From an uncultured Poribacteria bacterium (GTDB lineage: Bacteria; Poribacteria; WGA-4E; WGA-3G): 64,000 nucleotides of DNA. The translations under genes and the position numbers were made by a program. Position 1 is the stretch's first letter; every line of letters begins with the position of its first letter. Shown one piece after another: positions 8,415-53,957 of this stretch. The stretch is taken from contig OX638351.1 of assembly GCA_951813565.1 (NCBI GenBank), forward strand, positions 3,296,001 to 3,360,000. The letters are read 5' to 3'. Below the pieces are notes generated by a model. That model ran no database searches. It saw nothing but the letters and a program-made list of their open reading frames with translations, and had not been told where the DNA came from.

Positions 8415-9161
8415 ATGTTCAAAGTTATCTTTATGTTGTCATTATGTTTGCTTTTATGTATTGCAGGTTACGGTGTTGCTAATGTAGCTGAGAAAGGTTT
8501 AGTCGCTTATTGGGCGTTTGACGAAGGTACTGGAAAAGCCGCGACAGATGCTACAGGCAACGGACATAATGGAGAATTTAACGGAGCGCCCAAATGGGTT
8601 GATGGAAAATTTGGCACCGCACTCGAATTTGACGGTGAGGATGACTATGTTGCAGTTGCCGATGACGACGCATTAGACCTAACAGACAGTATCACGCTGA
8701 TGGCATGGTTCAACCCAAATGATGTTTTAACCAGCCGTCGCTTGATGGTTAAGAATGACTCTATCTTTGTCATATTTGACTTCGGCAACACAAATAGCAT
8801 TGATTTTCTCGTCAAGCCGAACAATACCCATGCAGAATCTACAACAACAGATTGGAAAGTTGGTGAATGGTACCATTTCGCAGGGACGTTTGATGGGAAG
8901 ACTATGAAGGTCTATATAAACGGGAAATTAGAAGGTGAAAAACCGAACGATGTTCCAATCGCGCCGTCCGATTTAGAATTATGGATCGGCGGTGATGATT
9001 ATGGTCGTCCGACAGACTTTTTCCCCGGCAAAATTGATGAGGTGCGGCTTTACGACAAGACTCTAAGCGAAGCGGACATCCAAAGAGTCATGGATACACC
9101 CGCGGACGTGCAAGCACGTGGCAAACTCACCACAACGTGGGCGAAAATAAAAGGTCTATAA
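8415..9161 (+). CDS. LamG/concanavalin A-like jellyroll secreted protein
   Basis: Signal peptide; LVAYWAFDEG, GKFGTALEFDG, WYHFAGTFDG, GKIDEVRLY; C-terminal KLTTTWAKIK. Confidence 0.9.
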   Translation: MFKVIFMLSLCLLLCIAGYGVANVAEKGLVAYWAFDEGTGKAATDATGNGHNGEFNGAPKWVDGKFGTALEFDGEDDYVAVADDDALDLTDSITLMAWFNPNDVLTSRRLMVKNDSIFVIFDFGNTNSIDFLVKPNNTHAESTTTDWKVGEWYHFAGTFDGKTMKVYINGKLEGEKPNDVPIAPSDLELWIGGDDYGRPTDFFPGKIDEVRLYDKTLSEADIQRVMDTPADVQARGKLTTTWAKIKGL

Positions 9162-9171
9162 AGGATTTTGT

Positions 9172-10791
9172 ATGACAAGCCAACAGAAACGCCCTGTCGT
9201 TCTCATTATTAGAGATGGATGGGGCAACAATCCGTATCCTGTATTTCAGGAAGTCAACGCTGTTCATCTGGCAAAAACACCTGTAGATGACTGGTTAAGA
9301 CAAAACTATCCGCATGTCCAAATTCACACCTCTGGCGAGGATGTCGGTTTACCACCAAGCGTCATCGGCAACAGTGAAGTTGGACATCAAAATATCGGCG
9401 CAGGACGCATTGTCCATCAAGAACTCCTGCGCATTAGCAAAATGATTCGTTCCGGTGAGTTCACTCGGAACGAAACGCTTTTAAACGCCATTACCCATGT
9501 CAAAAACAACGGAACGAATCTACATCTCATGGGATTAGCAAGCGATGCGGGTGTTCACAGTTCGCTTGAACACCTCTATGGATTGCTTTCCCTCGCGAAA
9601 AACAACGGATTGGAAACTAACCAAGTCTTCATTCACAACTTCAGCGATGGACGTGATTGCCAACCCGACCTCGGCATTAAGTTTTGTGAACAGATTGAGG
9701 CAAAACTCAAAGAAATCGGTATTGGGCAGATAGCCTCCGTTATTGGTCGTTACTACGCAATGGACCGAGATGACCGATGGGAACGGGTTGAGGTAGCATA
9801 TCGCCTGTTAACCGAAGGTGTCGGTTCAAGCGTTACCGCTGCAACACAGGCATATAACGATTACTACAAAAATCCTGATGATGAAAATCGTAAAGGAGAT
9901 GAGTTTATTAGACCTACTGTGGTTGTTGATAGTAACGGAGAGTCACTACCACGAATTGCTAATGGCGATGCGGTTATTTTCTATAACTTTCGTGGTGACC
10001 GACCCCGTGAACTCACGAAATCTTTCTGTTTAGATACATTTCCTTATGAGGCAGAAGGAAAAGACGGTGTTACGCGAGAAATGGGTTTTAAACGGAATTG
10101 TAAAATGAGCGTTAAGTTTGTTACGATGACTGAATATGAACAGGGAATGCCTGTTGAAGCGGCTGTGACAAAACCGCCGAAAATGCGCAATACACTCGGT
10201 TCGTATGTTAGCGAAGCAGGTCTGACGCAATTCCGATGTGCCGAAACAGAGAAGTTTCCACATGTTACCTTCTTTTTTAATGATTATCGAGATGAGCCTT
10301 ATAAAGGTGAAGAACGTCAAATCATCGCTTCCCCGCGCGACGTTACTACATACGACCAGAAGCCTGAGATGTCAGCACCGGGTGTTACGAATGAGATGTT
10401 ACGACGAATCGCTTCTGACAAATACGACCTGATGGTTTTAAACTACGCCAACGGTGACATGGTAGGTCATACAGGATCGCTTCCTGCAGCTATCAAGGCA
10501 GTTGAAGCGGTTGATATAGGGGTTGGAAAGATTGTTAACGCTGTTCTGGAAAAAGGTGGAGCACTCATTGTCACAGCAGATCACGGCAACTGTGAACAGA
10601 TGATTGATCCAGAAACCGGCGGTATTCATACGGCACACACCACCTATGATGTTGACCTCATCGTTGTAGATGAGCAATATAGAAATCATCAACTACGGAC
10701 AGGGGGACGACTTGCAGATATTGCACCGACAGCACTACGTCTCCTCGGTTTACCACAACCTTCTGAGATGACAGGTGAATCCTTGATCTAA
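9172..10791 (+). CDS. gpmI: 2,3-BPG-independent phosphoglycerate mutase
   Basis: DGWG, GNSEVGH, GRYYAMDRD, AETEK, DMVGHTG, TADHGN. Confidence 0.96.
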   Translation: MTSQQKRPVVLIIRDGWGNNPYPVFQEVNAVHLAKTPVDDWLRQNYPHVQIHTSGEDVGLPPSVIGNSEVGHQNIGAGRIVHQELLRISKMIRSGEFTRNETLLNAITHVKNNGTNLHLMGLASDAGVHSSLEHLYGLLSLAKNNGLETNQVFIHNFSDGRDCQPDLGIKFCEQIEAKLKEIGIGQIASVIGRYYAMDRDDRWERVEVAYRLLTEGVGSSVTAATQAYNDYYKNPDDENRKGDEFIRPTVVVDSNGESLPRIANGDAVIFYNFRGDRPRELTKSFCLDTFPYEAEGKDGVTREMGFKRNCKMSVKFVTMTEYEQGMPVEAAVTKPPKMRNTLGSYVSEAGLTQFRCAETEKFPHVTFFFNDYRDEPYKGEERQIIASPRDVTTYDQKPEMSAPGVTNEMLRRIASDKYDLMVLNYANGDMVGHTGSLPAAIKAVEAVDIGVGKIVNAVLEKGGALIVTADHGNCEQMIDPETGGIHTAHTTYDVDLIVVDEQYRNHQLRTGGRLADIAPTALRLLGLPQPSEMTGESLI

Positions 10792-10863
10792 TTGTGTCTA
10801 CCCAATTTATGTAAATACCGGCTGAATTTGCCGATGCTATAAATTTACTAAGGAGATTTTGGC

Positions 10864-11859
10864 ATGTCCACAATCATTGACCAACAAATTCGCAACGATT
10901 TCAGGCTATTTGCTGGACGCGCGAACCCGGCTTTAGCAAAGGAGATCGCCGCGATTATAGGCGTTGAACTGGGTAAAATTACTATTGGTCCATTTCCTAA
11001 CAGTGAGACACGTGTTCAGATAGAGGAAAGTATCCGCGGTACCGATATCTATATTATTCAACCGACGTGCGAACCCGCCAACGAAAACCTGATGGAACTT
11101 CTCATCACAATTGATGCGATGAAACGTGCATCTGCACGTCAGATTACTGCGATTATTCCATACTTCGGGTACGCTCGTCAAGACCATAAAACAACAGGGC
11201 GCGAACCGATTAGCGCGAAACTTGTGGCAAACCTCCTAACCACCGCAGGCGCAAGCCGTGTTATGGCGATTGATCTGCACGTCCCACAAATCCAAGGTTT
11301 CTTTGATATTCCGATGGATCACCTCACTGCGCTAACGACTCTGGCAAACTATTTTAGGGATAAACAGATTGAAAATGGCGTGATTGTTGCGCCTGATGTT
11401 GGTCGTGCGAAGCTTGCAGAAAAATACGCCAAAATTCTTCGGCTCCCGTTAGCCATTATGCACAAACGGAGAAATGGTGCTGATGGACAAGACGTTGAAT
11501 TCGTTGAGCTTGTTGGTGATGTCAAAGGTAAAACTCCGATTATTATTGATGATGAAATAGCAACGGGTGGTAGTATCTATGAACAAGCACAAGCGTTGGC
11601 AGCAGCTGGTGCAAAGCCTGCTTATGTCAGTATCGCACATGCAGTGCTTGTAGGTCCCGCATTGGAACGGCTCAGTCACCCTTCAATTCGTGAAGTGGTC
11701 ACTACGGATACAATTCCTGTCCCTGCTGAAAAGCAGCTTGATGGAAAAATTAAAGTACTTTCTATCGCATCACTTCTCGCGCAAGCCATTCTAAGGGTTC
11801 ACCAGCACAGATCTGTAAGTCAAGTTTTCCGAGATCAACATCTTGATTTTGCGGTATAA
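10864..11859 (+). CDS. prs: Ribose-phosphate pyrophosphokinase
   Basis: PYFGYARQD, DLHVPQIQGFF, IIDDEIATGGS. Confidence 0.95.
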   Translation: MSTIIDQQIRNDFRLFAGRANPALAKEIAAIIGVELGKITIGPFPNSETRVQIEESIRGTDIYIIQPTCEPANENLMELLITIDAMKRASARQITAIIPYFGYARQDHKTTGREPISAKLVANLLTTAGASRVMAIDLHVPQIQGFFDIPMDHLTALTTLANYFRDKQIENGVIVAPDVGRAKLAEKYAKILRLPLAIMHKRRNGADGQDVEFVELVGDVKGKTPIIIDDEIATGGSIYEQAQALAAAGAKPAYVSIAHAVLVGPALERLSHPSIREVVTTDTIPVPAEKQLDGKIKVLSIASLLAQAILRVHQHRSVSQVFRDQHLDFAV

Positions 11860-11888
11860 TCAGAGATTTCGCTCCTGCTGAAAAACAG

Positions 11889-13004
11889 ATGATTCCTATA
11901 CTTTACCTTAGCCATTGTGGGTCAAGCATCGGTGGGGGCGAAAAACAACTCTATTATCTTGTTACGCATCTGAATAAAAAACTTTATCAACCGATTGTCG
12001 TCTGCCCCGATGATGGTATTTTCGCAAACCAATTAAGAGAGGCGAATATTCCCACCGTTATTCTGAATCTGCCGCCTTGGCGGAAAGTTGTATCCCGCCT
12101 CACTCGCCACTCAGCTGCCGCCGAGTTAACCAATCTTGCCAAAAAACACAATGTCCAATTAGTCCACACCTCCGATTCGTGGCTAAATCCATATCTTTTG
12201 CAAATTAAAACTCAACTGAATGTTCCCGTCATTTCGCATGTTCGGAATCTTCTAACACCTGCACAGGTGTCAAAGTACGACTTCAACCAGATGAGCCACA
12301 TCATTGCAATCTCTGAACAGAGTAAAACTCCACTCGTTCAAGCTGGTATCGTTTCTCAAAAAATTGATATTGTCTTAAACTGTGTAGACCTCTCTGTTTT
12401 TCAACCTGATCCTGCAGAAAATGATAAAAAATCGGAACTGTTTATAGTCGGAATAGTAGGTAGGATTGAACCCTTTAAAAGACAAAAAACTTATGTGGAG
12501 ATAGCGAGCGAGGTTGCCAAGCAATACCAAAACGTTCGCTTTCACATCATCGGTGCTGCGCTTGATACACCCGAACATCGCGCTTATGATAAAGAAGTTC
12601 GCCAATTGGTATCCGAATATCAGTTGGATGACTCAATACATTTCGCTGGACATCGGGACGACATACCGCGCGCCATGCAGGAACTTGACCTTTTGGTTAC
12701 GTTATCCGCCGGGAGTATCATAGCAGAGGCAATGGCATCAGGGAAACCTGTCATCGGCACACCAATCGGCAGCACCTCTGAAATGATTATAGACGGTGTG
12801 ACAGGATACGTGGTTCCGTTAGACTCAATTGAGGCAATCTCAGACAGGATTGTCCAATTGATTACAGATTCTGATAAGTGTAAACAGATGGGTAATGCTG
12901 CAAGAAAACATGCTGAGGAAGCATTCAGCATAGAAAAGCATGTCCAAAAGATTCAGAACATATATGAAAAACTAATTGAAACTAATAATGAGAATGGTGT
13001 ATAA
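11889..13004 (+). CDS. Glycosyltransferase family 4
   Basis: GGGEKQ, VGRIEPFK, EAMASGKPVI (GT-B fold). Confidence 0.9.
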   Translation: MIPILYLSHCGSSIGGGEKQLYYLVTHLNKKLYQPIVVCPDDGIFANQLREANIPTVILNLPPWRKVVSRLTRHSAAAELTNLAKKHNVQLVHTSDSWLNPYLLQIKTQLNVPVISHVRNLLTPAQVSKYDFNQMSHIIAISEQSKTPLVQAGIVSQKIDIVLNCVDLSVFQPDPAENDKKSELFIVGIVGRIEPFKRQKTYVEIASEVAKQYQNVRFHIIGAALDTPEHRAYDKEVRQLVSEYQLDDSIHFAGHRDDIPRAMQELDLLVTLSAGSIIAEAMASGKPVIGTPIGSTSEMIIDGVTGYVVPLDSIEAISDRIVQLITDSDKCKQMGNAARKHAEEAFSIEKHVQKIQNIYEKLIETNNENGV

Positions 13005-13053
13005 TTATGGCATAAATAATATCAAAGCAAAATTATCAAGGGAACAGCGACTT

Positions 13054-13554
13054 ATGAGTGATAGATTTGAAGCCACTAATATCAAAGAAGTTGAAAAAGC
13101 GCTAAAGCATTTTAATAGTTTTCATGATGATTACGTTGCGGGGATTGAAATTAAGTTTGAAAATTACAAAGCCTTAGATGGGGATAGCGCGTCTATAGGG
13201 ATTGGAAGTGCTAATAAGACAATTATCCTCATTGTCAACACCGGCCCTTATAAAAAAGAGCATAATAAGTTCGTTCGAGTTGAATTTAAAGATGTCAAAT
13301 CATTTTTTATCTCATCACCGCTGCAGGATGATGGTCCAAAAGCTGGTCCAACATGGGGAATTTCAGACACATACATAGAGTTTGGGCCTGATGAAATTGA
13401 TATTGATTGGGAATTTAGTTTTATATGTGGTAGGGCAAAGTTTTCAGTCATTTGCTCTAAAATTGTCATTTCACATGAGACAGATGCAAAATACGCCCAA
13501 ATGACCGACAACAAAACCTTAAAACTGATCCGTGGACCGGCAAGAGAGTCTTGA
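13054..13554 (+). CDS. Hypothetical protein (start uncertain; ORF open from 12976)
   Basis: Long ORF co-oriented with its neighbours; FNSFHDD motif. Confidence 0.55.
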   Translation: MSDRFEATNIKEVEKALKHFNSFHDDYVAGIEIKFENYKALDGDSASIGIGSANKTIILIVNTGPYKKEHNKFVRVEFKDVKSFFISSPLQDDGPKAGPTWGISDTYIEFGPDEIDIDWEFSFICGRAKFSVICSKIVISHETDAKYAQMTDNKTLKLIRGPARES

Positions 13555-13670
13555 TGAATTCTCGAAGACACTGAGCAAACAGGAAAGCTTGAAGACAGAT
13601 AAGCGCATATTGAAGTGGTAAGATAGCGCGACATCCGTAGAAAGCAATATCATATCCAGGAGGTTTATGA

Positions 13671-14531
13671 ATGCTAACACAGGAACAACTTGATTCTTAT
13701 GATAAAAACGGCTATATCGGTGTTGAGTCAGTGCTAAATGATGAAGAAGTAGCAGCACTTCGTCGCGTTACCGATGAATTTGTTGAAAAATCCAGAGAAG
13801 TTACAGAACATAACGACATTTTTGATTTAGAGCCGGGACACTCCGCTGCGAACCCGCGTGTACGCCGTATCAAAAGCCCATGCCTATATCACACTGTCTA
13901 TGACCAAACCTTACGCCATCCTAATATACTTGGCATAGTGTCCCAACTCATCGGTTCAGGAATTCGGTATAATGGACACAAACTCAATATGAAATATCCC
14001 GAATTTGGTAGTCCTGTTGAATGGCATCAGGATTGGGCGTTTTATCCGCATACCAACGATGATCTGCTTGCAGTCGGTGTAGTTATTGACGATATGACTG
14101 TAGAGAACGGCGCTTTGATGATACTCCCCGGTTCCCATAAAGGGCCAACCTTGGACCATCACCAAAACGGTGCTTTTATAGGTGCGGTAACCGACCCAGA
14201 TTTTACACCAGAAGGTGCTGTGCCTATTGAATTAGAAGCAGGTGGGATTACAATCCATCACGTTCGAGCCTTACACGGATCTGCCCCGAATACATCCGAT
14301 AAACCGCGCCGCTTGATGCTTTTCCAGTATTGCGCCGTAGATGCTTGGCCTCTGAAAGGTATTCCAGATTGGGATACATTCAATGAATTCATTATTCAAG
14401 GTGAACCCACAAACCAACCGCGTATCGTCCCTACGCCTGTTCGTATGCCAGAACCTTATTCCGAAAAGAAAGGTTCAATCTACGAAGTACAGTCCCTGCT
14501 TGAGAACCCAATGTATGGGAACAAGCAGTAG
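13671..14531 (+). CDS. Phytanoyl-CoA dioxygenase (PhyH) family 2OG-Fe(II) oxygenase
   Basis: WHQD, ENGAL..LPGSH, HGSAPN.S..PRR. Confidence 0.92.
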   Translation: MLTQEQLDSYDKNGYIGVESVLNDEEVAALRRVTDEFVEKSREVTEHNDIFDLEPGHSAANPRVRRIKSPCLYHTVYDQTLRHPNILGIVSQLIGSGIRYNGHKLNMKYPEFGSPVEWHQDWAFYPHTNDDLLAVGVVIDDMTVENGALMILPGSHKGPTLDHHQNGAFIGAVTDPDFTPEGAVPIELEAGGITIHHVRALHGSAPNTSDKPRRLMLFQYCAVDAWPLKGIPDWDTFNEFIIQGEPTNQPRIVPTPVRMPEPYSEKKGSIYEVQSLLENPMYGNKQ

Positions 14532-14811
14532 GTTAAGGTTTCCCTAAGCCATTGAAATTCGCCAAATGCCGTACACGCATTTGGCGTTGATTTTTAACGC
14601 TATTCAGTTCATTCCCACATAACTCCTACCTAAAACAAACTTATTTTTTTAGAACTCATATTGAGTAAAACATAAAGATGTAGTAAAATAGGGAAAGAAA
14701 GTCAGATAGTTTATGTCCCTATTTCCACTGGACATCCACATTTACTTTATGAGAGGTGTTATTATGGCAGACGAAACTCAAAAAACTCCGAGATACAATG
14801 GTATTCCAAAG

Positions 14812-14994
14812 ATGGCGCCGACACACTTCTGCTTGGGAACTTTCACCGCTGAGAGCCTCAAGAACAACTTCGGCTTAAACTCGGGGGTGAAGTTTCTTCG
14901 TTTTCGTTTCGCCATCGGATACTCCTTTCAAGTAGATGGATATTATACCATAATCTTGTCTTAAAGAGTGGCCCGAATTTCCGGTGGCAGTACA
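14812..14994 (-). mobile_element. IS3-family left-end remnant with frameshifted OrfA start
   Basis: Minus strand starts TGTACTGCCACCGGAAATTCGGGCCAC (TG terminus); ATG at 14915 reads MAKRKRRNFTPEFK and, after a 1-nt shift, AEVVLEALSGESSQAEVCRRH (HTH_Tnp_1-like). Confidence 0.7.
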
Positions 14995-15097
14995 CGCTCC
15001 TACAGAATATATGTGAACTTATTTACATAATTTACTATAATAGAGAACAGTTCATTATTCGTCAAATATCGTAGCGCAAATTTTTAGTTTGCGTCCT

Positions 15098-29425: not shown

Positions 29426-30418
29426 TTATTTTCTTTGTTTTATTTCTCCCCAAACCGTCGTGAGTAATCCTTCAGGTTCAAGAGCGTACCGCCTGGTTGC
29501 CCATTCAAACGCCGACAAACCTCCGTTGGAATACGTTTCCAATACTCGCTCAGTCACCCCACTTTCAATATGCACTGCAAAATTAACATAGCTAAATATG
29601 GGAATACGATCAATGTAGGATGAGTAAACAAGGTACTTGCCATCAGCTGACCAGGTGAGGTACTCAATGTAAGCATCTTCTTCAGGTTCTATGTACCGCA
29701 AGTTGTGAGGTCCCACAACGGAGACAATGCCAAGTTTATAGGGTTTAGTTTTAGTCAGAAAAGCTAATTGTTTTGAATTGGGTGAGAAAACAGGAAATTC
29801 ACCGTCTTTGATAATATGTGAAGTCTTTTTCAGAAAAGTATCAAAGAGAAAAACACCGAAGTCTGTGCTGTAGGCGATTTGTTTTCCATTAGGTGCCCAG
29901 TCCACCTGATATGGATTTTCTTTCAATAACAGTTCTGCGATCGGTTTCTTTCTCTCTATCTCCTGATTTGAAATGAGGTAGAGCCCGCGTTCCAGAGGCT
30001 GCTTAATAATAATGAACGAATGGTTCGTGAATATCACATCTCCGTCCGGTGAGACGTCGGCATCAATGATTTCATTATATTCTCCTTGTGTCAGTTTTTT
30101 CGGCGCTGCATTCGGATTCTCTCTATCAAGTAAGTAAACATCATCGAAAGAGTCAAACTCATCTTTGCCTTTTATCCTAACAACAGCTACGATATAGCGG
30201 CCATCTTTTTGTATAGAGAACTTCGTAATATCATGCGGCAATCTGAAAAGCGGTTGTGCGCTGCGTCCATCATTTACGTTGCCAATCCATAATTCTCGGT
30301 AGTCCTTTGGGTATCTAAAGATGATCTCGCCAGTGGGAGCGGCGTGCGTTGCCACTGGCAAGAGAAGAACAAGACTTAAACAGATCGTTTTGAGTGTCTT
30401 TTTAAAACTGGATTTCAT
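29426..30418 (-). CDS. Secreted TolB-like (PD40) beta-propeller
   Basis: RBS plus MKSSFKK signal peptide; WAPNGKQIAY, FSPNSKQLAF, WSADGKYLVY; C-terminal LLTTVWGEIK. Confidence 0.82.
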   Translation of the reverse strand: MKSSFKKTLKTICLSLVLLLPVATHAAPTGEIIFRYPKDYRELWIGNVNDGRSAQPLFRLPHDITKFSIQKDGRYIVAVVRIKGKDEFDSFDDVYLLDRENPNAAPKKLTQGEYNEIIDADVSPDGDVIFTNHSFIIIKQPLERGLYLISNQEIERKKPIAELLLKENPYQVDWAPNGKQIAYSTDFGVFLFDTFLKKTSHIIKDGEFPVFSPNSKQLAFLTKTKPYKLGIVSVVGPHNLRYIEPEEDAYIEYLTWSADGKYLVYSSYIDRIPIFSYVNFAVHIESGVTERVLETYSNGGLSAFEWATRRYALEPEGLLTTVWGEIKQRK

Positions 30419-30564: not shown

Positions 30565-32435
30565 TCACTTAGATTCCGAAGAAGTCTTCTTGATTTCTCC
30601 CCATTGCGTTTGCATCTTACTTTTTGGGAAACCGATAACGCATTGCCACTAATCCAATCGACCTCATAATCATTACCAGGGTGATCCGTTAATTGGGTTG
30701 TTTTCTTTGTTGCAACCTACATTCCACAGTTGTTAAATCAGATTTTAAGTATTTATGTTATACCCTACATTCCGCAGTTGTTAAATCAGATTTTAAGTAT
30801 TTATGTTATACTGTTGTATCTTGAATAATAGGAGATGATACCATAACTGAACCTACTTTTACAACCCTACGCTTAGATCATCTTGGCATTGTTGCTGGTG
30901 TATGTGATCGTATTGACTTGATTGACACGATTGATACCTTTATTGGTCTAACGAAACGGAAAGTCTCAGTGGGTGAAGCTGTGATGGCAATGGTCTTGAA
31001 TGCTTTAGGCTTTGTCTCACGCCCTCTCTACTTGACACCTGAGTTTTTTTCTAATAAACCCGTGGACTTGTTGGTCCGGTCTCACCGCTGTGCTGCCGAT
31101 TTTTCGGACGATAGTCTTGGGCGTGCTTTAGATACTCTTTATGAAAACGGAGTTACCGAACTTTTTGCGATAGTTGCGTCCAAGGCATTATCAACATTTG
31201 ACATAGCCCATCGTTTTGTCCATCTGGATAGTAGCACGTTTAGTTTGCATGGAGACTATGATACCGAAACGGACGATGAACACGCCATTCACATCACCTA
31301 CGGATATAGTCGGGATCAGCGTCCGGACCTCAAACAGGTGGTTGTCCAACTCATTTGTTCTTATCGGTCTCAGTTCCCGGTATAGTTCAAAGCACTTGGC
31401 GGTGTTCCTCAAAGGTGGTTAGTTGTTTATTCCGATGCAGCGTCCCATCGTGAAGTGGCGACTTTGGAAAAAAAGATTGCCAAAGCACAGGGGGTTGCCG
31501 AGACATCCTTCAAGCGATTGCAGCATAAAACGTTTGACACCTATTCAGCTGCTGAAGCCGCTGTGGCAGATATATCCAAATCTTGGAAGTATCATCAACC
31601 TTGTGCCCCCATCATCTCTGTTCCACATTATACAACTCCGGGACGACCTAACAAAACGGATAAACCGACACACTTCCGTTATCGGATTGAGGGTAAAGTC
31701 GTTGCGAATGTGGAAGCAATTGAAAAACTCAAGCGCAGCAAAGGCAGATTTGTGCTCGCCACGAATGAGTTAGACACAACTTTACTTGACGATGCCACTT
31801 TACTTGATGTGTATAAAGCACAGAACATCTCTGTAGAACGCAGTTTTCGCTTTTTGAAAGACCCTTTATTCTTTGCCGCCAGTCTATATCTAAAAAACAA
31901 CCAACGCATCATGGCATTGCTGATGGTGATGGGACTTTCGCTGCTTGTTTATGCGCTTGCGGAACGATGGGTTCAAACCGAGTTGGTCAAACAAGAACAA
32001 ACGATACCCAACCAAGTTGGTAAGTCAACGCAGAACCCAACACGCCGACGCATCTTTCAAATGTTTGAGGGTATTGATGTCCTATTGATAGAACAAAACG
32101 GTCATATACAACGCACTATCGTGAACATAACAGTGATAAAGTCTCAAATTATCAACATATTAGGTATAGAAGTCAAAAAAGTTTATTTTCCAGATCCGTA
32201 ACTGCGGAATGTAGGATGTATACTCAGATTCTGTATACAGAATCTGCGTTCCATCTGGCGACCACCGCGGATAATTAGACGTTAGTTTATCAGTCAGTAG
32301 CGTTACATTGCTGCCATCGTCGTTCATGACGTAGATTCCAGAAATACCATCGCGTTTAGAACTAAAAACGACTTTAGTATCCGCTACTGTTGAAAGCAAG
32401 ACAATGAGGCAGAAAATCATTAATAATATACGCAT
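30565..32435 (-). pseudogene. TolB-like secreted protein gene disrupted by IS1634 (5' part 32216-32435, 3' part 30565-30715)
   Basis: N-terminal signal peptide, FSSKRDG and PRWSPDG; C-terminal TQLTDHPGNDYEVDWISG and, after a frameshift, KSKMQTQWGEIKK. Confidence 0.65.
30716..32215 (+). mobile_element. IS1634-family element, defective
   Basis: 16-bp TIR CCTACATTCCGCAGTT / AACTGCGGAATGTAGG; LDHLGIVAG, HLDSS, YGYSRDQRPDLKQ, VERSFRFLK; in-frame TAG at 31383, internal deletion, ATA at the expected start. Confidence 0.88.
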
Positions 32436-42180: not shown

Positions 42181-42738
42181 ATGATTCCAGATGATGTTTT
42201 TGTGCACAAAACAGTAGAGGGCGATATTGAGGCATTTAACGAATTGGTCAATCGCCACCATACCAAAATTTATGCGCTTGCATACCGAATGCTCGGCAAT
42301 TCCGAGGATGCTGAGGATGCTACGCAAGAGACGTTTTTAGAGGCGTATAAGTCAATTAAAACGTTTCGATTCCAGTCGCAATTTGGAACGTGGTTGTATC
42401 GTGTTGGTCTAAACACTTGCAATCAATACATCCGCAAAGCCAAATCCCGTAATAGAATGCTGGAGGCTTATACAGAAGAAACTTCGGCACATGGCATGAC
42501 AGAGGAACGGGATATACCTGATCGGATGGTAATCAAGACTGAACAGAGTGAGATCGTTCAAGCCGCTATTGACTGTCTGCCTCCGAAGCAGCGTGAGGTT
42601 GTGACGCTGTATTATATGCAACACCTTAAATATAAAGAGATCGCTGAAATTCTTAACTGCTCTCTCGGAACTGTCGCCTCACGGTTAAATAAAGCTATAC
42701 AGAATCTCAAAGCGAAGTTGGAAAAACACTATTTTTGA
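42181..42738 (+). CDS. ECF sigma factor
   Basis: DAEDATQETF, FGTWLYR, YKEIAEIL..SLGTVASRL. Confidence 0.93.
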   Translation: MIPDDVFVHKTVEGDIEAFNELVNRHHTKIYALAYRMLGNSEDAEDATQETFLEAYKSIKTFRFQSQFGTWLYRVGLNTCNQYIRKAKSRNRMLEAYTEETSAHGMTEERDIPDRMVIKTEQSEIVQAAIDCLPPKQREVVTLYYMQHLKYKEIAEILNCSLGTVASRLNKAIQNLKAKLEKHYF

Positions 42739-42795: not shown

Positions 42796-43476
42796 ATGAA
42801 TTGTAAACAGACTCGTGAAAATCTGGTTTTACACCGTCAAGATTCCATGTTGCAAGGGACAAAGCGGCATGAATTCTTACAACATCTACGAGGCTGCAAG
42901 GCGTGCCAAGTTGAATATGAAGGATTGTGGCATACCGCTACGGTACTGGGTAGTCTTGAAGCACCAGAACCACCTCCCGAATTACTGGGAAATATCCAAG
43001 GTCAAATCCGAGAAGTCCATAGGAGGAATCAAACCGCCTTCTTCGCGGCCCCTATCTCATGGCTTTTCGGTAAGTTTAAGTTAGAAATATCTCCGCAGTT
43101 TGTGAATTGTGTCGCGTTGCTTTGTTATCTGATCGTATCAGTCTTCTTCGTGAAGCTTGTGTTCTTTACAGATACACCAGAGCAGGATTTCGGTTTGACC
43201 GCAATGGAAGAGACACGTCTCCAACGCGTGCGAATTGCCCCATCACCTTGGGCATCACTTAAGCACGGGAGCGCGCAGGTTGAGAAAACACTTCCTACAG
43301 AAGCACCGAAAAAGACACATGTGAATCTTGCCAGTCCATTTGCTGATATTGAGTCAACAGAGTTGTGGCACACGCATCCTATTAATAAAGGCACAGAAGT
43401 CTTTGATGCTCATTTTTCAAACACAGTAAGCAAGAAACTTACCGTCATTTGGAGCGATATCAAAACAAATCTGTAA
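42796..43476 (+). CDS. Zinc-binding anti-sigma factor (zf-HC2)
   Basis: MNC...HLRGCKAC plus TM helix, downstream of the ECF sigma. Confidence 0.82.
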   Translation: MNCKQTRENLVLHRQDSMLQGTKRHEFLQHLRGCKACQVEYEGLWHTATVLGSLEAPEPPPELLGNIQGQIREVHRRNQTAFFAAPISWLFGKFKLEISPQFVNCVALLCYLIVSVFFVKLVFFTDTPEQDFGLTAMEETRLQRVRIAPSPWASLKHGSAQVEKTLPTEAPKKTHVNLASPFADIESTELWHTHPINKGTEVFDAHFSNTVSKKLTVIWSDIKTNL

Positions 43477-44760: not shown

Positions 44761-45745
44761 AGTCAAAGACTTACGAAAGTATTTTCCGATACGAAAAGGA
44801 ATTCTTCGACAGACTGTTGGACATGTGAAAGCGGTAGACGGGATTAGTTTTGATGTCCAACGCGGCGAGACCCTTGGGTTAGTAGGCGAAAGCGGTTGTG
44901 GAAAGACTACCGCAAGTCGATGTCTCCTCCGTTTAATTTCACCTACAAGTGGTAGTTTCACTTTTGGGGATGAACAAGTGGATTTAGCAAAGTTGACGTC
45001 TCAACAGGTACGTCCCTTTCGTCGGCGTATCCAGATGGTTTTCCAAGACCCACAATCATCTCTTAACCCACGGTTGACGGTGGCAGATATCGTCAGTGAG
45101 CCGCTACGCGTCAATCGCGCTATAAAAAGGAACGAACTTCAAGATAGAATTGTTGAACTGTTGGAATCTGTTGGTTTAAAATCACAAGACATGCGGCGTT
45201 ACCCACACGCCTTTAGCGGTGGACAACGCCAACGTATTGGGATTGCACGTGCATTAGCACTTAACCCCGAACTGATCGTCGCTGATGAACCAGTATCGGC
45301 ACTTGATGTCTCCGTGCAAGCCCAAATTCTCAACCTTCTGGCGGAATTGCGGAAGAAATTCCGACTTTCCTATATCTTTATCGCACATGATTTGAGCATT
45401 GTCAAGCATATCAGCGACCGTGTGGCAGTTATGTATCTCGGTAAGATCGTTGAGATTAGTGATGCTGAAACACTTTATCAATCACCGAAACACCCTTATA
45501 CAGAGGCGTTGATATCCGCAGTACCATTGCCTGATCCGAAGGAACAACGTAAGCGTGAACTAATTCGCCTTGAAGGAGATGTTCCTGATCCATCTCAACC
45601 ACCAATGGGTTGCCATTTTCATCCACGGTGCCGCTACGCAACCGATATTTGTAAACAGGAAACACCCGAACTTCGAGAGATTACACAGGGCGTAAAAGTT
45701 GCGTGTCATCTGAGTGAAACGTTGGAATTACAAGGAGTGTCGTGA
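44744..45745 (+). CDS. Oligopeptide ABC transporter ATPase (OppF/DppF-like)
   Basis: [32 protein letters not shown]. Confidence 0.92.
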
Positions 45746-46692
45746 TGCCAAAATCAAATCAGATAACATCTGAACAACTTGCATCCTTTCGAAAGCAGCT
45801 TGAACGCCGATGGATAAACCGAAAAGTTGATGAGGCGTTATTAGAACGTGCGTGGCAGGTCGCATACAAGATCGCAACACTTCTTTATGAAGAATTCGAT
45901 GCGACACAGGTTGCTGTTTTCGGGTCACTTGCGGAACCGATCAGTTTCACAAAGTCATCGGATATTGATATTGCAGTGTGGGGTCTCTCTGATAAGACAC
46001 ATTCAGCTGCATACTGGAAAGTTAAAAGCATTGATACGGGATTCAAAATAGACCTGATTAATTTTGATACAACCAAAGGGCTTTTCCAAGAAAGAATCCA
46101 GCAGCAAGCGATTCTTGTGAAAAAAGGAGAACAACCCACATTATGGAAAACACTTTATGAGCATCTACAACGTCAAGTTTTCCCTGTCGTGGAGGAAGAA
46201 ATATACGAGATGAACCGAAAAAAACTCACCCAACGTATCAACGATGAACTTGTAAAGATAGAGGATACGCTTGCAAGAATCCAGAGAGGGTTGGAAAAAA
46301 TTAAAGTTGTTCCCTCTGATGTCACAGAATTTGTTGAAAATACGATTGCGACAGACCTTGCCGATATCTATAGTGGGATTGAACGGATTTTTGAGCGAAT
46401 TGCCAACGAAGTTGATGGACAATTACCGAGAGGGAGTAGATGGCATAAAAACCTACTTGAGCAAATGACAAAACAACGCGCTGAGAGACCGCCTGTTATT
46501 TCTGACGATACATTTCTCAAATTAGGAGAACTTTTAGCGTTTCGCCACAAAGTAACCAACATCTACGGGCGAGAATTGAAATATGACAATACATTGGGGC
46601 ATGCAGAGACAATCCATGAATTGTTTGCGGCAGTTTCACAGGATTTCAATACCTTCACTGATTCTCTTGCGCAGCATCAGGAGGATGTCTGA
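45742..46692 (+). CDS. Fused MNT-HEPN protein, copy 1
   Basis: VFGSLA...SDIDIAV N-terminal domain; [12 protein letters not shown]...WHKNLL...[10 protein letters not shown]-terminal domain. Confidence 0.85.
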
Positions 46693-46693
46693 A

Positions 46694-47662
46694 ATGCAAC
46701 AGGCTACAAACACAAAGCAAACAGCTAAAGAGATGTCATCAGAACAACTTGCATCCTGCCGAAAGCAGCTTGAACGCCGATGGAAAAACCGAAAAGTTGA
46801 TGAGGCGTTATTAGAACGTGCGTGGCAGGTCGCATACGAGATCGCAACACTTCTTTATGAAGAATTCGATGCGACACAGGTTGCTGTTTTTGGATCGCTT
46901 GCGGAACCGATCAGTTTCACAAAGTCATCGGATATTGATATTGCAGTGTGGGGGCTCTCTGATAAGACACATTCAGCTGCATACTGGAAAGTTAAAGGCA
47001 TTGATACGGGATTCAAAATAGACCTGATTAATTTTGATACAACCAAAGGGCTTTTCCAAGAAAGAATCCAGCAGCAAGCGATTCCTATTAAAAAAGGGGA
47101 GCAGCCTACATTATGGAAAACACTTTATGAACACTTACAACGTCAAGTTTTTCCTGTCGTGGAGGAAGAAATATACGAGATGAACCGAAAAAAACTCACC
47201 CAACGTATCAACGATGAATGCACAAAAATTGAATCTACTGTTGATGCAATTGTCAAAGCTTTAGAAGACATTGAAGTACTACCTGCTGCAGCAAGAGAAT
47301 ATATAGAGGAATCAATTGCCAACAAACTTGCCGATGTTTATCGGGGTATAGAGCGAATTTTTGAGCGAATTGCCAACGAAGTTGACACGCATCTGTCGCG
47401 TGGAAGTCGGTGGCATAAAAACCTACTTGAACAGATGACAAAACAACGCCCTGAAAGACCAACTGTGATTTCGCAGGAGACTTTTTTGCTTTTAGAAGCG
47501 CTCTTAGAATTTCGACATAAAGTTAACAACATCTATGCAGATGAACTAATTTATAAAAATACGGAGGAGCATGCAAAGGGTATCAAAGAACTGTTTCAGA
47601 GTTTCTCCGATGATCTCAATATGTTTACCGATTTTCTTGCACAGCATCAGGATGAATCTTGA
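46694..47662 (+). CDS. Fused MNT-HEPN protein, copy 2
   Basis: Same architecture (FRHKVNNIY); AGGAGG RBS at 46679-46684. Confidence 0.85.
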   Translation: MQQATNTKQTAKEMSSEQLASCRKQLERRWKNRKVDEALLERAWQVAYEIATLLYEEFDATQVAVFGSLAEPISFTKSSDIDIAVWGLSDKTHSAAYWKVKGIDTGFKIDLINFDTTKGLFQERIQQQAIPIKKGEQPTLWKTLYEHLQRQVFPVVEEEIYEMNRKKLTQRINDECTKIESTVDAIVKALEDIEVLPAAAREYIEESIANKLADVYRGIERIFERIANEVDTHLSRGSRWHKNLLEQMTKQRPERPTVISQETFLLLEALLEFRHKVNNIYADELIYKNTEEHAKGIKELFQSFSDDLNMFTDFLAQHQDES

Positions 47663-47677
47663 AAGGAATAAAACTAC

Positions 47678-48505: not shown

Positions 48506-48531
48506 ACTGCGCCGAATCTGGTATATCTCCG

Positions 48532-49455
48532 TTATTTCCAAATCCCAATGTCTCGTAATATCAACTTCTTGATTTTACATACCATCGTATATGCTGGATC
48601 AAACACGTTTCCCATATCGTATTCAACGGTTTGCCCTAACAAGATGTGCGCAGCACGTTTCTCCAAACCGAGTTCTCCTAACCATCGGAGCAGTTCGGTA
48701 GTAGCGTGCTGCACTGCTTGATCCAAGGGACGCGCATTGCCTGCTGTGAGGATATATTCCGCGTTTTCAGCACGCGGCCAATTAATAGACTTTTCCTTGA
48801 TTACTTCAACTGTGAACTGAACATCAAAAGAGATTTCAATCCCGGTACCGACAATTTCTCCGTCACCTTGTACTGCATGACCATCGCCGAGGTGAAAGAG
48901 CGCACCCGGAACAAAGACGGGAAGATAGACAGTAACACCCTCTTTAAACCCACGATAGTCCATATTTCCGCCGTGTGTAGAGGAGGTCGCCGTAGAAATG
49001 GCTTGTCCGCGCGGTGGTGCAACACCAAAACATCCCACCATCGGCTCAAGCGGCAGTGTAAGTCTACCTAACTGTGTTTCTGGCGACATTAAAGTTGCTG
49101 TCCATGCTTCAATATCAACGTGCCATTCAGCACGATCCCCTTCAGGCATTTCGGATGCAACATAATATGGATCAAGCACATTCGGCACAACAACCGTAGC
49201 AGTTCTCCCAATTTTACGATTCGGTAGCAGTTTATCGAAATGCACTGCAAGCGTATCTCCCAGTTGCGCGGTTTGAATATAAAACGGACCTGTTTGTGGA
49301 TTACCACCCGGTGTTACCTGTGTATCGGTAGCATCATAACCCGCGTTATCTACGGTTGTAGTAAAAACAGTATCACCACTATTGATATGAAGCACTGGCT
49401 CATGTGTACCTATTGCTGTGTGGTATACAGTCGGTTTAAAATGATGTATTGCCAT
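48532..49455 (-). CDS. Acetamidase/formamidase family protein
   Basis: NPQTGPFYI, HGGNMD, GDGHAVQGDGE. Confidence 0.9.
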   Translation of the reverse strand: MAIHHFKPTVYHTAIGTHEPVLHINSGDTVFTTTVDNAGYDATDTQVTPGGNPQTGPFYIQTAQLGDTLAVHFDKLLPNRKIGRTATVVVPNVLDPYYVASEMPEGDRAEWHVDIEAWTATLMSPETQLGRLTLPLEPMVGCFGVAPPRGQAISTATSSTHGGNMDYRGFKEGVTVYLPVFVPGALFHLGDGHAVQGDGEIVGTGIEISFDVQFTVEVIKEKSINWPRAENAEYILTAGNARPLDQAVQHATTELLRWLGELGLEKRAAHILLGQTVEYDMGNVFDPAYTMVCKIKKLILRDIGIWK

Positions 49456-49681
49456 AGTATATCCTTTCTATCGTCTGAAGTGCCTTGTAAGTTTGATGTC
49501 CAATTCTGTGTCTATACCATAATATACCATATCAGCAGTGTTGCGTCTACAAGGGATGTATTGCAGCAGGGTTATTTAGTTTTAGGGTTTTTGCACATTT
49601 TCGTCAAAAAGTCGCGAGCTGGAGCTCGCTCCTACAGTAAGAGGGGCATTCAAGAATAACCGAAAATATGGAGAACTAAAT

Positions 49682-50026
49682 GAGGGGTGTGCATAAATAT
49701 TTGGCGCATCAACACAGACAGGGACAGACGCCAGGTGCCGCTTGATTTATAGAAATGCGTTTGTAGTCGCGCAATTCATTGCCAAATCAACACAGCATGC
49801 GCCAAATCAAGAAATCAACGGTATGAATCATGGCGAATCATGTAGAATACCAAAAGCGTATTCTACCAAGCGCATTCGTCTTTAGTCATTCACCGGGTCC
49901 GAATGCCTTATGGCATTCCCCGTGTGGCATGCTGCGCCTCTTTGAACTTGCGGACGGAAACCCACGCCGTGTGCCGTCCACCTTTAAGCGCATATTTAAC
50001 ATCGGAATTATTTATGCACACCCCTC
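49682..50026 (+). mobile_element. MITE family B, copy 2
   Basis: Same TIR as 22973-23251; 8-bp duplication AACTAAAT (49674-49681, 50027-50034). Confidence 0.88.
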
Positions 50027-50145
50027 AACTAAATAACCCTGGTGTTGCAATTGGAAAGAACGATTAACATCGCGGCATTTAGCAAGGAGATCACCCTATG
50101 ATAATAAATAAAACGCACCTTTGAAGTGGCAAAATTCTAAAAGAA

Positions 50146-50175
50146 TTGACACTTCTTGGACTAAAATGTTAGAAT
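50146..50175 (+). promoter_or_regulatory. Putative sigma-70 promoter
   Basis: TTGACA-18 nt-TAGAAT with TGn extension upstream of the protease. Confidence 0.45.
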
Positions 50176-50230
50176 TTCAGAATAAATCTACAAACGAATC
50201 TATTTCATTGTATAAACAAAAAGGAGTATC

Positions 50231-51646
50231 ATGAAACAAATTTTTCAAAAAACATCCATCCTTTTACTGCTTTTCACATTTATTACAGCAAACGCCAACG
50301 CAGCGCACAACTGGACAGAACAGATTGCCAGTTTTAAACCGATGGTAGTGAATGTCGAAACTGCTTCTGAGGTTGTCTTCGAAACGGAATCAAAAGGCAC
50401 AAGCTTCGCTACCGGTTTCGTAGTTGATGCAGAACGTGGGATTATCGCCACGAACCGACATGTTACAGGCAGCAGTCCTGCCTATGTTAAAATCAACTTT
50501 CATGATGGTAGCTTTACAGAAGCAAATATTCTTTACTATGACCCAACGCACGACTTCGGATTTTATAAGATTGATCCTGCTGAAGTTGATTTTGAACTGC
50601 AAGCCGTTGAACTTGGTGAATGGGATAAACTCGCGCTCGGCGATGAACTACTGCTGATTGGCAACAACGAAAAAGAGGAATATTCTATCAAATTTGGTAC
50701 GATTGCGAACCTCAATGTCAACAAAGGTGATAGACATTCAAGTTACATCCATACCACGTTCGACAGAACAGGCGGGTCAAGTGGTAGTCCTGTATGGAAC
50801 ACCGCGGGCGAGGTTATTGCTATCCATGCACGCGGAACAGACACCTCCAGTTTTGAATTACCCATTGATTACCTTATTGATGCGCTGGAATTAATTCAGA
50901 ACGAGATGCCTATTCAACGTGGCGAAATCGGTGTTGATCTTGAACTTATCTCCATTGGAGAAGCCATAAAACATTTTAATTTTCCAGAGGTTTTACGCAA
51001 AGAGATTGGTCCTTCCAAAGCTGGCACACCGAAAGTTATTCAGGTAGAATCTATGGTGCCGCGGACAACAGGTGAAACCATCCTCCGAGCATCCGATATT
51101 ATCTATCGCATTAACGATGAACTTATCCGAGATGATTTATACACCTTTGATGCTATTCTGAATCAGAACGTCGGTAAAGAAGTCACTTTGGACATCTACC
51201 GTAATGGAGAAAACCTCAGTCTTCAGGTGCCCGTAGAGAATTTAGAGAAAAAGAAAGTTCAGAGATTCGTTCGATTCGGTGGTGCTGTTTTTCACGACAT
51301 AACGCCGCAGCTGCGTCGGTTGCTCTACTTGGAAGCTAACGGTGTCTATATGCCCCATGCCGCTGCGGGTAGTAGTTTTTCACGTGTCGGTGTACAAGAG
51401 CGGAACGGTAATTCTAAGGTGGTTATTCTTGATGTAAATGGAAAGCAGATTCGGAATCTGGACGATTTCATTGAGGCATGCAAAACCATTACCGATGGAC
51501 AACACACTTATGTTGTTGTCCGAGATTTCAATCTGTTTGACAGCTCCCCAACCCCGAAAAGTTTAACGGTCAACCTTAAATTCGGTCCATTGCAACAATT
51601 TAAATGGGATTCTGAGAAGTTAGATTGGGAAGAAGTAGTTGAGTAA
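50231..51646 (+). CDS. Secreted HtrA-type serine protease with PDZ domains (Nma111/Deg7-like)
   Basis: TNRHV, HDFGF, GGSSGSPV catalytic triad; signal peptide; PDZ-like C-terminal half. Confidence 0.88.
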   Translation: MKQIFQKTSILLLLFTFITANANAAHNWTEQIASFKPMVVNVETASEVVFETESKGTSFATGFVVDAERGIIATNRHVTGSSPAYVKINFHDGSFTEANILYYDPTHDFGFYKIDPAEVDFELQAVELGEWDKLALGDELLLIGNNEKEEYSIKFGTIANLNVNKGDRHSSYIHTTFDRTGGSSGSPVWNTAGEVIAIHARGTDTSSFELPIDYLIDALELIQNEMPIQRGEIGVDLELISIGEAIKHFNFPEVLRKEIGPSKAGTPKVIQVESMVPRTTGETILRASDIIYRINDELIRDDLYTFDAILNQNVGKEVTLDIYRNGENLSLQVPVENLEKKKVQRFVRFGGAVFHDITPQLRRLLYLEANGVYMPHAAAGSSFSRVGVQERNGNSKVVILDVNGKQIRNLDDFIEACKTITDGQHTYVVVRDFNLFDSSPTPKSLTVNLKFGPLQQFKWDSEKLDWEEVVE

Positions 51647-51679
51647 TACCAAATTAACGGGATTTATCGCATTTTCCGG

Positions 51680-52180
51680 ACGGTAGGTGCGGTTTCCTAA
51701 ACGCTCCATAACTGTCAATTTAAGAAAAAAAGCGTAGTCGCGCAATTCATTGCCAAATCAACGCCAAGCGCACTTGGGCGAATACGCCAAATCAACGGTC
51801 CGAATCATGGCGAATGCCGGACGGGGAATGCCAAAGGGCATTCATACCCGGTGAATGACTAAAGACGAATGCGCTTTTGGCATTCGCCATGATTCATACC
51901 GTTGATTTCTTGATTTGGCGCATTCGTCTTTAGGCACTCCCCGTGTGGTATTCGCCATGACTTGTCGCCTCGGACATTCTGTAGGAGCGAGCTCCAGCTC
52001 GCGACCGGGAGGTCGCTCCTACAGAAGAAAATCGGGGTTGAAAACCCGCCAAATGCCAAAAAGCGCATTTGGCGTTGATTTGGCAGCATGCCAAACGCGC
52101 ATGCTGCGTTGATTCGCTCCCACAAGAGGGTATATCCTTAAATTGACGCATAAGGCGCGTTTTCCTAACTGCTCCATAAA
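51680..52180. repeat. Composite cluster of short palindromic repeats
   Basis: Modules shared with MITE B (GTAGTCGCGCAATTCATTGCCAAATCAAC and the reverse complement of about 49800-49895) and GTAGGAGCG...CGCTCCTAC. Confidence 0.7.
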
Positions 52181-52563
52181 TATGAATCAAGTTAATGTGG
52201 TATAAGAAAACGCGCTAAAATAAAAGTAAACGAACCTTTTATTTTTAGCTATGTCTAATTGAAAATGAGGGCAATTGATTTTCGCCCAGATTTAGGTCAC
52301 CGCTTCCTTCAAGAGGAATTCAAGGTCATCCGATATTGAATGCCTTTTAAGAGTTAGATTCTTCTTTCTCATTTTAGTAAAATTCAGTATACTCTTACCA
52401 TTGATTGCGAGCGTGGTCAAGAGTTTCTTCACTTACAGAATCCCAATGGGTAGATTCTATTATCCGATGCTGACCCTGCGCGTTGTGGACTCGGATTCCG
52501 TCTTGATCCAGGCGATGGCTCGGGTTACGCGTTTCTTATTCATCATTTTTTGAATAAAAAACT

Positions 52564-52591
52564 TTGACATCACCAAATAATATTGTATAAT
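52564..52591 (+). promoter_or_regulatory. Consensus sigma-70 promoter
   Basis: TTGACA-16 nt-TATAAT. Confidence 0.6.
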
Positions 52592-52715
52592 GTATACAAT
52601 TTGCTGGATCAGTAAAGATTGGTATGGTAGAATGGGTGCAGTTTATTCAAGCTTATGTAACTTAACGCGAAACTCACGTAAAAGTGAGATTCATTTTTAT
52701 AGGAGGTTGAACGGC

Positions 52716-53411
52716 ATGAAAATTATATTGGTATTAGTAGGATTTGTGTTGATGATAGCCTATTCTGTTATCGGCACGAGCGACATGGCACAGGCGGAGG
52801 AAGTCTTGGGAGTAGGAACGGATTCGCTGCTCGGAGGAGACCTAACCGACCCAGAAGACGATGGTAATCCTGAAGCAGATGACGGTTACGACGCCATTTT
52901 CACTGCCAACGATGAACCTGGATTCGCTGGCGGGGAATTTGCGTTTAACGTCTTTGATAACACCCTTGGCCCCGGCAATGCCAAATGGTGCTGAGGACGT
53001 GCAGGCGGCATTCCGGAGGAAGGCCTACACATTACAGCTGAGTTTGAGGAGCCGTACGCATTGACACACTTCACCGTATCTTCAGCGAACGATGTTCCTG
53101 CGAGGGACCCTACAGTGTGGGAGGTTCAGGGGTCGAACGACGGCGAAGATTTTACGACTATCTATGCTCACGACGGGGACAGTTTTTGGGATCAGCGACT
53201 GCAAGTCGTCCTTTTTGAGGCAGGGGTAGATTACGACGTTCAAAAAATCGGATATCGGTTTTTTCGGCATGTTACTTTTGACACCGTAGCGAACCCGGCT
53301 GGGGCGTACTTTCAAATTGGCGAAATTGAGTACTTCGGCGATGATAGTTATCCCGTAGACCCTAAAGCCAAGGTCACAACCACATGGGGAAGCATCAAAA
53401 ACATCCGATAA
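52716..53411 (+). CDS. Secreted discoidin/F5-8-type-C-like protein with in-frame TGA (candidate selenoprotein, 231 aa, C92-U93)
   Basis: ORFs 52590-52994 and 53061-53411 are in the same frame, separated by one TGA; AGGAGG RBS; signal peptide; SANDVPARDP..WEVQGSNDG; C-terminal KVTTTWGSIK. Confidence 0.75.
52999..53030 (+). promoter_or_regulatory. Putative bacterial SECIS hairpin
   Basis: GTG-C-AGGC-GGCA-TTCC-[GGA]-GGAA-G-GCCT-A-CAC; G-starting loop 21 nt after the UGA. Confidence 0.6.
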
Positions 53412-53433
53412 ACACAAATATCGGACATTTTCT

Positions 53434-53476
53434 AAATCGGCTTGAATCCAGTAATAACTTGGTTTGAGCCGATTTT
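53434..53476 (+). terminator. Terminator-like hairpin
   Basis: AAATCGGCTTGAATCCA...TGGTTTGAGCCGATTTT. Confidence 0.6.
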
Positions 53477-53573
53477 CATATCTGCTTGAAACCGTATGGA
53501 CTATACTGGTGAGGACCTTTTTGATTTTGAACCGCGAAAATCTTCATGCTCATATTGATTATGAGTTTATAAC

Positions 53574-53957
53574 ATGGAATTCCTCAATGACCATCGTGCT
53601 TGGAAGCAGAATGATACTAATCCTCCGTTTGGTGCGGTAAAAATCGGCACTTGGTACTGGATGAAGGCTGAAATATCAGACGATGGTTTTACGGGCAAAA
53701 TCTGGGAAGATGGCGAAGCAGAACCGAGAGATTGGCTCCTTGAAAGCGCACTTGGTTTTGGTGGTCTTAGACCGAAAAGTGGTCAAGTGGGTCTAAATGG
53801 AGGATCAAGCAGTGATCCGCCTGGGCTTACGGTTGTATCATTTGATAATTGGACGATCTGCGAAACAGCTGATGAGTGCACACCGGATGAGATTCTTGCT
53901 GTTCAAGCAGCTGGCAAACTTCCAACGGTTTGGGGAGTACTCAAAGCGCACTATTAA
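53574..53957 (+). pseudogene. Probable 3' fragment of a secreted beta-sandwich protein
   Basis: No signal peptide or clear RBS; GTWYWMKAEI...GQVGL...FDNW; C-terminal AVQAAGKLPTVWGVLK. Confidence 0.55.

Follow-up and report, generated by a model that had tools for sequence, protein, structure and literature searches.

A short C-terminal tail on exported proteins of Poribacteria as a candidate signal for type IX secretion

A tail shared by proteins of different folds

What might the same short peptide be doing at the ends of proteins with different folds? The question is raised by a 64,000-nucleotide stretch of the genome of an uncultured Poribacteria bacterium (contig OX638351.1; this stretch is referred to as the window, and positions are those of the window unless given as genome positions). 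The original prediction, made from the sequence of the window alone, had listed five genes with a common C-terminal tail and regarded the tail as a lineage-specific export or surface-attachment signal. The tail is real, widespread and uncatalogued, and it most likely represents a new class of signal in an already known secretion system, type IX (T9SS). All five tails are found where they had been placed:

8415..9161, plus strand: LamG (Laminin_G_3) protein with signal peptide; PF13385, E 6e-33; tail at 9102-9161
29426..30418, minus strand: TolB-like beta-propeller with signal peptide, start at 30418; PD40 repeats; tail at 29426-29488
30565..32435, minus strand: broken TolB-like gene, read in three frames; copies of its insertion sequence elsewhere at 98-99%
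52716..53411, plus strand: discoidin (F5/8 type C)-like, with signal peptide and an in-frame TGA (52992-52994); tail at 53349-53411
53574..53957, plus strand: N-terminally truncated gene fragment, upstream frame not open; weak match to a tail-bearing paralogue; tail at 53895-53957

The second TolB-like gene is indeed broken, as had been stated, and the damage can be described more precisely: an insertion sequence (~30760-32217) separates an N-terminal piece (32160-32435) from a C-terminal piece (30565-30700), in which the tail is frameshifted. A 48-base duplication lies beside the insertion sequence.

The whole genome (5.43 Mb in one contig, 95% complete) was searched, and proteins were taken from the analysis's own gene calls (4,514 genes). 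A regular expression run over all six frames finds 137 places, 133 of them at most 12 amino acids from a stop codon, and 133 genome copies yield the consensus [LTF]-[AP]-V-[EDS]-[PA]-x-[GD]-K-L-[TA]-T-T-W-[GA]-x-[LI]-K, followed by 0-10 further residues. The tail comprises 18 residues, and ~150 proteins of the source genome carry it. A profile built from the genome copies and scanned over the proteome, as had been suggested at the outset, gives 148 matches at 13 bits or above; 145 of these are terminal (within 12 residues of the stop), so the motif is not equally common internally. A relaxed pattern adds 24 proteins, ~18 of which were judged by eye to be tail variants. Among the called proteins, 129 of 4,514 end in the tail, against a mean of 0.02 and a maximum of 1 when the last 30 residues were shuffled 50 times. 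Because the codons beneath the conserved residues are synonymously mixed, the tail is preserved as a peptide and not as a DNA repeat.

Existing tail models do not define this element: in Pfam and NCBIfam, no model covers the Poribacteria tail (window proteins and cluster representatives) or the form found in sister lineages. A search of the Atlas with the tail alone as query returned a best value of 0.85 and no family, and in the open-access literature searched no paper on the tail or on T9SS machinery in the tail-bearing phyla was found.

In several respects the tail resembles the tripartite signals (LPXTG, PEP-CTERM, GlyGly-CTERM, MYXO-CTERM): it is short and terminal, is present in many copies, has invariant residues and a basic end, and occurs on proteins with signal peptides. 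The tripartite feature list, however, includes a transmembrane helix between motif and basic end (10.1101/2023.06.07.544157), whereas no transmembrane segment and no Cys, LPxTG or PEP motif is present among 142 tails, in agreement with the statement that the tail is too short and polar for a PEP-CTERM or LPXTG anchor. Exosortase was not found in the source genome and was found in four other genomes; sortase, rhombosortase and myxosortase were not searched for.

Carrier proteins

Signal peptides were judged by a hydrophobicity rule of the analysis's own, applied to its own gene calls, and not by SignalP. A hydrophobic N-terminus is present in 139 of the 143 full-length tail carriers compared with 1,107 of the 3,487 other proteins (32%), which answers the question of co-occurrence with signal peptides in the affirmative. 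In three of the four carriers that fail the rule, a signal peptide is recognizable by eye. The remaining one is an anti-sigma factor, a sixth, tail-like end beyond the five noted, which has a membrane helix instead of a signal peptide; it is an exception to the claim that every intact copy has a signal peptide, and it is encoded downstream of a sigma factor of the extracytoplasmic function (ECF) type:

42181..42738, plus strand: ECF-type sigma factor, upstream of the anti-sigma factor (read from sequence)
42796..43476, plus strand: anti-sigma factor with a membrane anchor, its end matching the second half of the tail; NF052375; one membrane helix; KLTVIWSDIKTNL at 43426-43476

A possible lipobox is seen in one of the 143 carriers and is doubtful; two LamG homologues that read as lipoproteins are without the tail.

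The carriers have a median length of 261, and their bodies fall into 35 sequence clusters, the biggest of which (72/148) is LamG. Pfam searches with 28 cluster representatives identified LamG, CBM4/9, CBM9, NPCBM, F5/8, 3-keto-disaccharide hydrolase, ankyrin and Ig domains, mostly carbohydrate-binding modules; 11 of the 28 had no Pfam match. The folds are thus different, as had been claimed, and the tail falls outside every Pfam match in window proteins and cluster representatives alike. The view that the tail is merely the final structural strand of each domain, or that the resemblance arose by chance, could draw on the abundance of one fold, the LamG cluster; in view of the unrelated folds, the position outside all Pfam matches, the shuffling control and the disorder of the tail in one structural model (see below), this explanation is largely refuted and scarcely credible. 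Being terminal, portable across folds, tied to N-terminal hydrophobic segments and free of a membrane anchor, the tail is in keeping with the proposed export or surface-attachment label.

Relatives of the discoidin domain carry other anchors: among the best 120 of 301, 17 have dockerin-like (8), PEP-CTERM (8) or MYXO-CTERM (1) ends, so that tripartite signals occur on relatives of a domain that here bears the tail. These anchors would favour a surface role and say nothing on the route. Altogether, ~3% of the genes in a dominant sponge symbiont bear the tail, most of them encoding sugar-binding modules, and the tail may thus delimit a large set of candidate surface proteins where the bacterium meets its host.

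Distribution of the tail

Within Poribacteria, the tail is present in 176 of 176 genomes from 11 families, scoring in this survey being capped at 47 matches per genome. A variant pattern, run over 185,579 genomes, matches at least 128 loci, which among the matches listed are mostly labelled Eisenbacteria, Krumholzibacteria, Latescibacterota or unclassified; of the loci read among these, all but one lie at the end of the reading frame. This sister tail contains W-G-x-I-K-x-L-Y-R and has [VT]-[PAS]-[VT]-[ERK] five residues before the W, though this element was absent from the search pattern; the Poribacteria equivalent, [LT]-[AP]-V-E, is found ten residues before the W. A profile comparison of the two tails gives 93%, which is partly circular because the pattern had fixed TWG and K. 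The sister tail occurs in 146 of 151 genomes of an Eisenbacteria-labelled phylum and in all nine genomes of a small third phylum.

In a Zixibacteria-labelled phylum, 10 of 121 genomes have one tail match each, nine of them marginal. Eight of these nine are true tails of an LF[KR] variant; they sit on a single small exported protein, whose homologues share the tail ending in 33 of 33 cases. The gene order is rex, small exported tail protein, STAS, anti-sigma kinase and membrane SpoIIE phosphatase; the tail gene and the three downstream genes recur in 8/8 loci, the rex-like gene in 7/8. Since the sister tail reaches at least four other phylum-level groups, the tail can no longer be called lineage-specific.

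The sister ending also bears on the possibility that the tail is a cationic amphipathic peptide that adheres to lipid or lipopolysaccharide and has no protein reader. The last 12 residues carry a net charge of +2.2, and this, together with the spacing of W-G-x-I-K-x-L-Y-R, which may be helical, would agree with such a role. The best 11-residue stretch in the last 25 residues, however, has a mean hydrophobicity of 0.39 (maximum 1.81), and in Poribacteria only the W and one aliphatic residue follow the T run. The near-invariant V, K, T, W, G and K point to a shaped pocket instead, and adhesion without a reader is quite improbable.

Links to T9SS

Kamke et al. 2014 (PMC3909097) describe T9SS-type domains in Poribacteria, with structural genes not seen. 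SprA-, PorU- and PorV-like genes in the source genome answer this open point. The SprA-like protein has 2,160 residues (genome 2022285-2028767, E 9e-46). PorU is one of three C25 peptidases in the genome, the one scanned; it reaches 420 bits at a cut-off of 420 and lies directly before a PorV-family gene (pair at genome 1987742-1995562). The SprA-like gene and the porU-porV pair each adjoin clusters of tail-bearing TolB-like genes. Of 14 PorV-family barrels in the genome, six exceed the cut-off; several come after a large protein with an end like the T9SS C-terminal domain (CTD), and type B shuttles likewise follow a large cargo gene (PMC12618676). One of the 14 is encoded in the window:

54048..54893, minus strand: divergent PorV/PorQ-family outer-membrane barrel; NF033709, E 7.6e-11, under the cut-off

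This gene is convergent with two tail genes; its best matches among the loci compared belong to the candidate carrier clade discussed below, and trees place it on a long branch outside that clade.

SprA-like genes occur in 150 of 150 Poribacteria genomes, all under the cut-off, and in 30 of 32 sister-tail genomes, 29 over it. The search for a cognate transporter that the original prediction had proposed thus leads to SprA-like or PorV-like genes in all tail-bearing lineages tested. In the source genome, T9SS genes lie within five genes of a tail gene in 10 of 17 cases compared with 22% of other exported genes (five distances were tried), and are adjacent to one in 3/17 compared with 5%; this proximity, greater than expected, is a weak sign.

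Tail and T9SS domain also meet within single proteins. Some 34 proteins (~34) end in a CTD, and in four of 22 proteins with an NYPNPF-type domain this domain is immediately preceded by the tail or by a W-to-L variant, the W being lost in three of the four. The folded seven-strand TIGR04183 domain is absent from the tails by NCBIfam and Pfam and present on these four; one tail-plus-CTD protein scores 28.5 bits (cut-off 23), and 30 of 30 aligned orthologues retain the arrangement. In a model of a tail-plus-CTD protein (33 sequences), the CTD folds and the tail is disordered, with a predicted local distance difference test (pLDDT) value <50 for residues 1-22. The tail is, as had been noted, much shorter than a T9SS CTD, but it is nevertheless tied to T9SS by its position before the CTD in four proteins and by the SprA- and PorV-like genes.

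The tail-plus-CTD proteins also lend themselves to another explanation, a non-covalent, dockerin-like docking tag: the tail would bind a resident envelope partner (a surface barrel, scaffold or periplasmic protein), and any passage of the outer membrane would rely on another signal. The CTD would then export these proteins and the tail dock them, which fits a disordered tail ahead of a folded CTD and the dockerin-like and other anchors on discoidin relatives; moreover, the inner-membrane anti-sigma factor retains only the KLTxxWxxIK half, suggesting a reader that is reachable from the periplasm. No scaffold was identified, however, and the ~145 tail-only proteins would need an exit route of their own or remain periplasmic. 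The loss of W where a CTD follows also argues against docking, which on balance is rather unlikely.

A signal for type II secretion (T2SS) or another non-T9SS route was considered in view of a T2SS-like cluster (genome 3363255-3380352) that starts 3 kb past the window and contains three near-identical 960-residue secretin genes in tandem. Secretins are found in 5/5 genomes tested, but they also match in 6/14 control genomes. Known T2SS tail signals require a membrane helix, which the tail does not have; together with the missing exosortase in the source genome and a fusion partner that is a T9SS domain, this makes such a route very unlikely.

Comparison with known T9SS signals

The type A CTD (TIGR04183), which operates with SprA, PorV and PorU, is likewise C-terminal and is found on signal-peptide proteins of many folds encoded by scattered genes. 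The likeness extends further: SprA-, PorV- and PorU-like genes are encoded in the same genomes, in four proteins the tail stands at the linker position ahead of a type A-like CTD, and it opens with a cleavage-site-like motif. Type A CTDs comprise 70-80 residues, the shortest being 40-55 in Prevotella intermedia (PMC11969387), whereas the tail has neither a folded domain nor the B, D and E motifs; the motor genes were also not found (see below).

The type B CTD with its PorP/SprF shuttles (PMC12618676) is a separate signal class with its own carrier barrel, and orphan cargo there shares an orphan shuttle, a precedent for the arrangement proposed here. It is a long folded domain, however, and the candidate carrier here is of the PorV family, its pairing with the tail being putative. 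NCBIfam places no TIGR04131-type domain on the window proteins, and the tail genes are scattered; PorP was not searched separately.

An orphan PorV-like barrel as candidate reader

The candidate reader is an orphan barrel at genome 4167124-4168179. A profile built from sister lineages only ranks it first of the 14 (248 bits; non-members <160), and orthologues at E 2e-25 or better are found in 8/8 Poribacteria and in 28/29 multi-tail sister genomes (27 full length). In barrel trees, which are samples (30 loci taken from larger match sets; a later tree with Zixibacteria used a quick search), three paralogues of the source genome cluster with sister-lineage barrels, and four Zixibacteria barrels nest within the candidate clade, which fits their single tail gene. 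The Atlas clusters nearest to the candidate are from Poribacteria, followed by Eisenbacteria. It carries a D-x-N-G loop, is modelled as a barrel (pLDDT 93) with PorV as best PDB matches, and has ten relatives annotated as 'hypothetical protein' only. Among the gene neighbours listed for its orthologues, no conservation is seen. Prediction of a complex between the candidate and the discoidin tail gave a score of 0.00 twice, with controls that were not folded, and counts neither way.

An Elusimicrobia-labelled phylum was rejected as a holder of the barrel clade, its best match of 185 bits being within the non-member range. Genomes with this label have up to 30 PorV-family barrels each, one of them with a weak SprA-like match. 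An exported HtrA-like PDZ protease is encoded near tail genes in the window (50231-51646, plus strand); it was considered as a tail reader, and its last residues are variable.

A proposed mechanism

The reading preferred here, for which the chances appear about even, is that SprA and the orphan PorV-like barrel clade common to the tail-bearing lineages tested read the tail as a T9SS signal of peptide size. It is an inference of ours that anything reads the tail, and likewise which protein does so and in which compartment. It could work in the following manner: Small folded proteins of the glycan-binding type are predicted to be exported by Sec. Their tail may then be caught by the carrier barrel in the lumen of the SprA-like pore, as type A domains are carried within the SprA lumen by PorV (PMC10994853). 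The PorV-family barrel would carry the protein to the cell surface, where it would be released, whether or not PorU cuts it. Binding is likely to rest on the K-L-T-T-T-W-G-x-I-K half, while the [LT]-[AP]-V-E half might permit cutting and linkage to a surface glycan. The latter is a weak step: the tail start resembles the PorU cleavage consensus PT/GI (PMC11969387), and T-[GASPD]-[VIA], a pattern picked after the data had been seen, is enriched over shuffles in CTD linkers (12/24), sister tails (26/125) and own tails (24/146); a strict T/V/L-small-V/I-E/D motif before CTDs is not enriched (4/38 vs 1.9).

Several points weigh against a peptide-sized T9SS signal. All known T9SS cargo has a CTD that is folded, and ~1,850 Å2 of it is buried upon binding to SprA/PorV (PMC10994853); the tail is without the B, D and E motifs. 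V is preceded by Pro in 40 of 146 own tails and by Glu or Asp in Zixibacteria, while PorU prefers a small residue there (PMC11969387). The SprA-like protein scores below the cut-off of its family, and no sequence in the PDB matches it; five of five genomes yielded neither GldM nor GldN in searches that gave no positive control match, and GldK and GldL were not searched. A T9SS CTD is listed on none of the best 120 longer discoidin-domain relatives, and the tail-plus-CTD proteins need explaining if the two signals are alternatives. As to the barrel, five Eisenbacteria-phylum genomes without a tail match keep it, it was not found in one draft genome with 21 tails, and the PorV expansion is unspecific, with 14-18 matches in each of five Zixibacteria. 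Zixibacteria were rejected as a tail-free negative control, the single tail gene and the barrel clade both being present; an earlier clean gap in this group arose because the query was a single sequence and the LF[KR] variant escaped the tail profile.

If T9SS does read an 18-residue peptide, the folded-domain rule for its cargo falls, and a very small tag would become available to export folded proteins.

Links to envelope regulators

In the anti-sigma factor, the tail-like end follows a variable linker and is kept as KLT[LV]FW[SN][DHN]IK in 30 of 30 orthologues read from one Poribacteria family (f1); matches to the protein in families f2-f4 stop short of it. Possibly, the ECF sigma/anti-sigma pair acts as a sensor of the export route. 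A cargo-type signal tied to an envelope regulator is known from the PorA-PorXY-SigP feedback of Porphyromonas gingivalis (PMC7712824); its counterparts here would be the anti-sigma factor with the half tail and the small tail protein in the anti-sigma/phosphatase operon of Zixibacteria. There is no homology between the systems, however, and the link here consists of gene context and sequence.

A wider proposal can be put forward tentatively: several uncultured phyla may have a third, peptide-sized class of T9SS signal with its own PorV-like carrier, motor-less and wired to envelope regulators, through an anti-sigma decoy copy in the periplasm (one Poribacteria family) and a tailed reporter in a partner-switching operon (Zixibacteria).

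A probable selenoprotein and further genes of the window

The discoidin gene is not broken; it is whole (52716-53411), with a single in-frame TGA where paralogues have Cys. In W-C-C-G, the TGA takes the place of the second Cys. Of 109 homologue matches, 26 have a single TGA as their sole stop (the TGA position was checked in four), and the genome encodes a tRNA-SeC and a SelB-like gene. The gene product is thus a probable exported selenoprotein with a Cys-Sec pair.

Elsewhere in the window, two near-identical nucleotidyltransferase-HEPN-like fusion genes, as read from sequence, lie in tandem at 45742-47662 on the plus strand.

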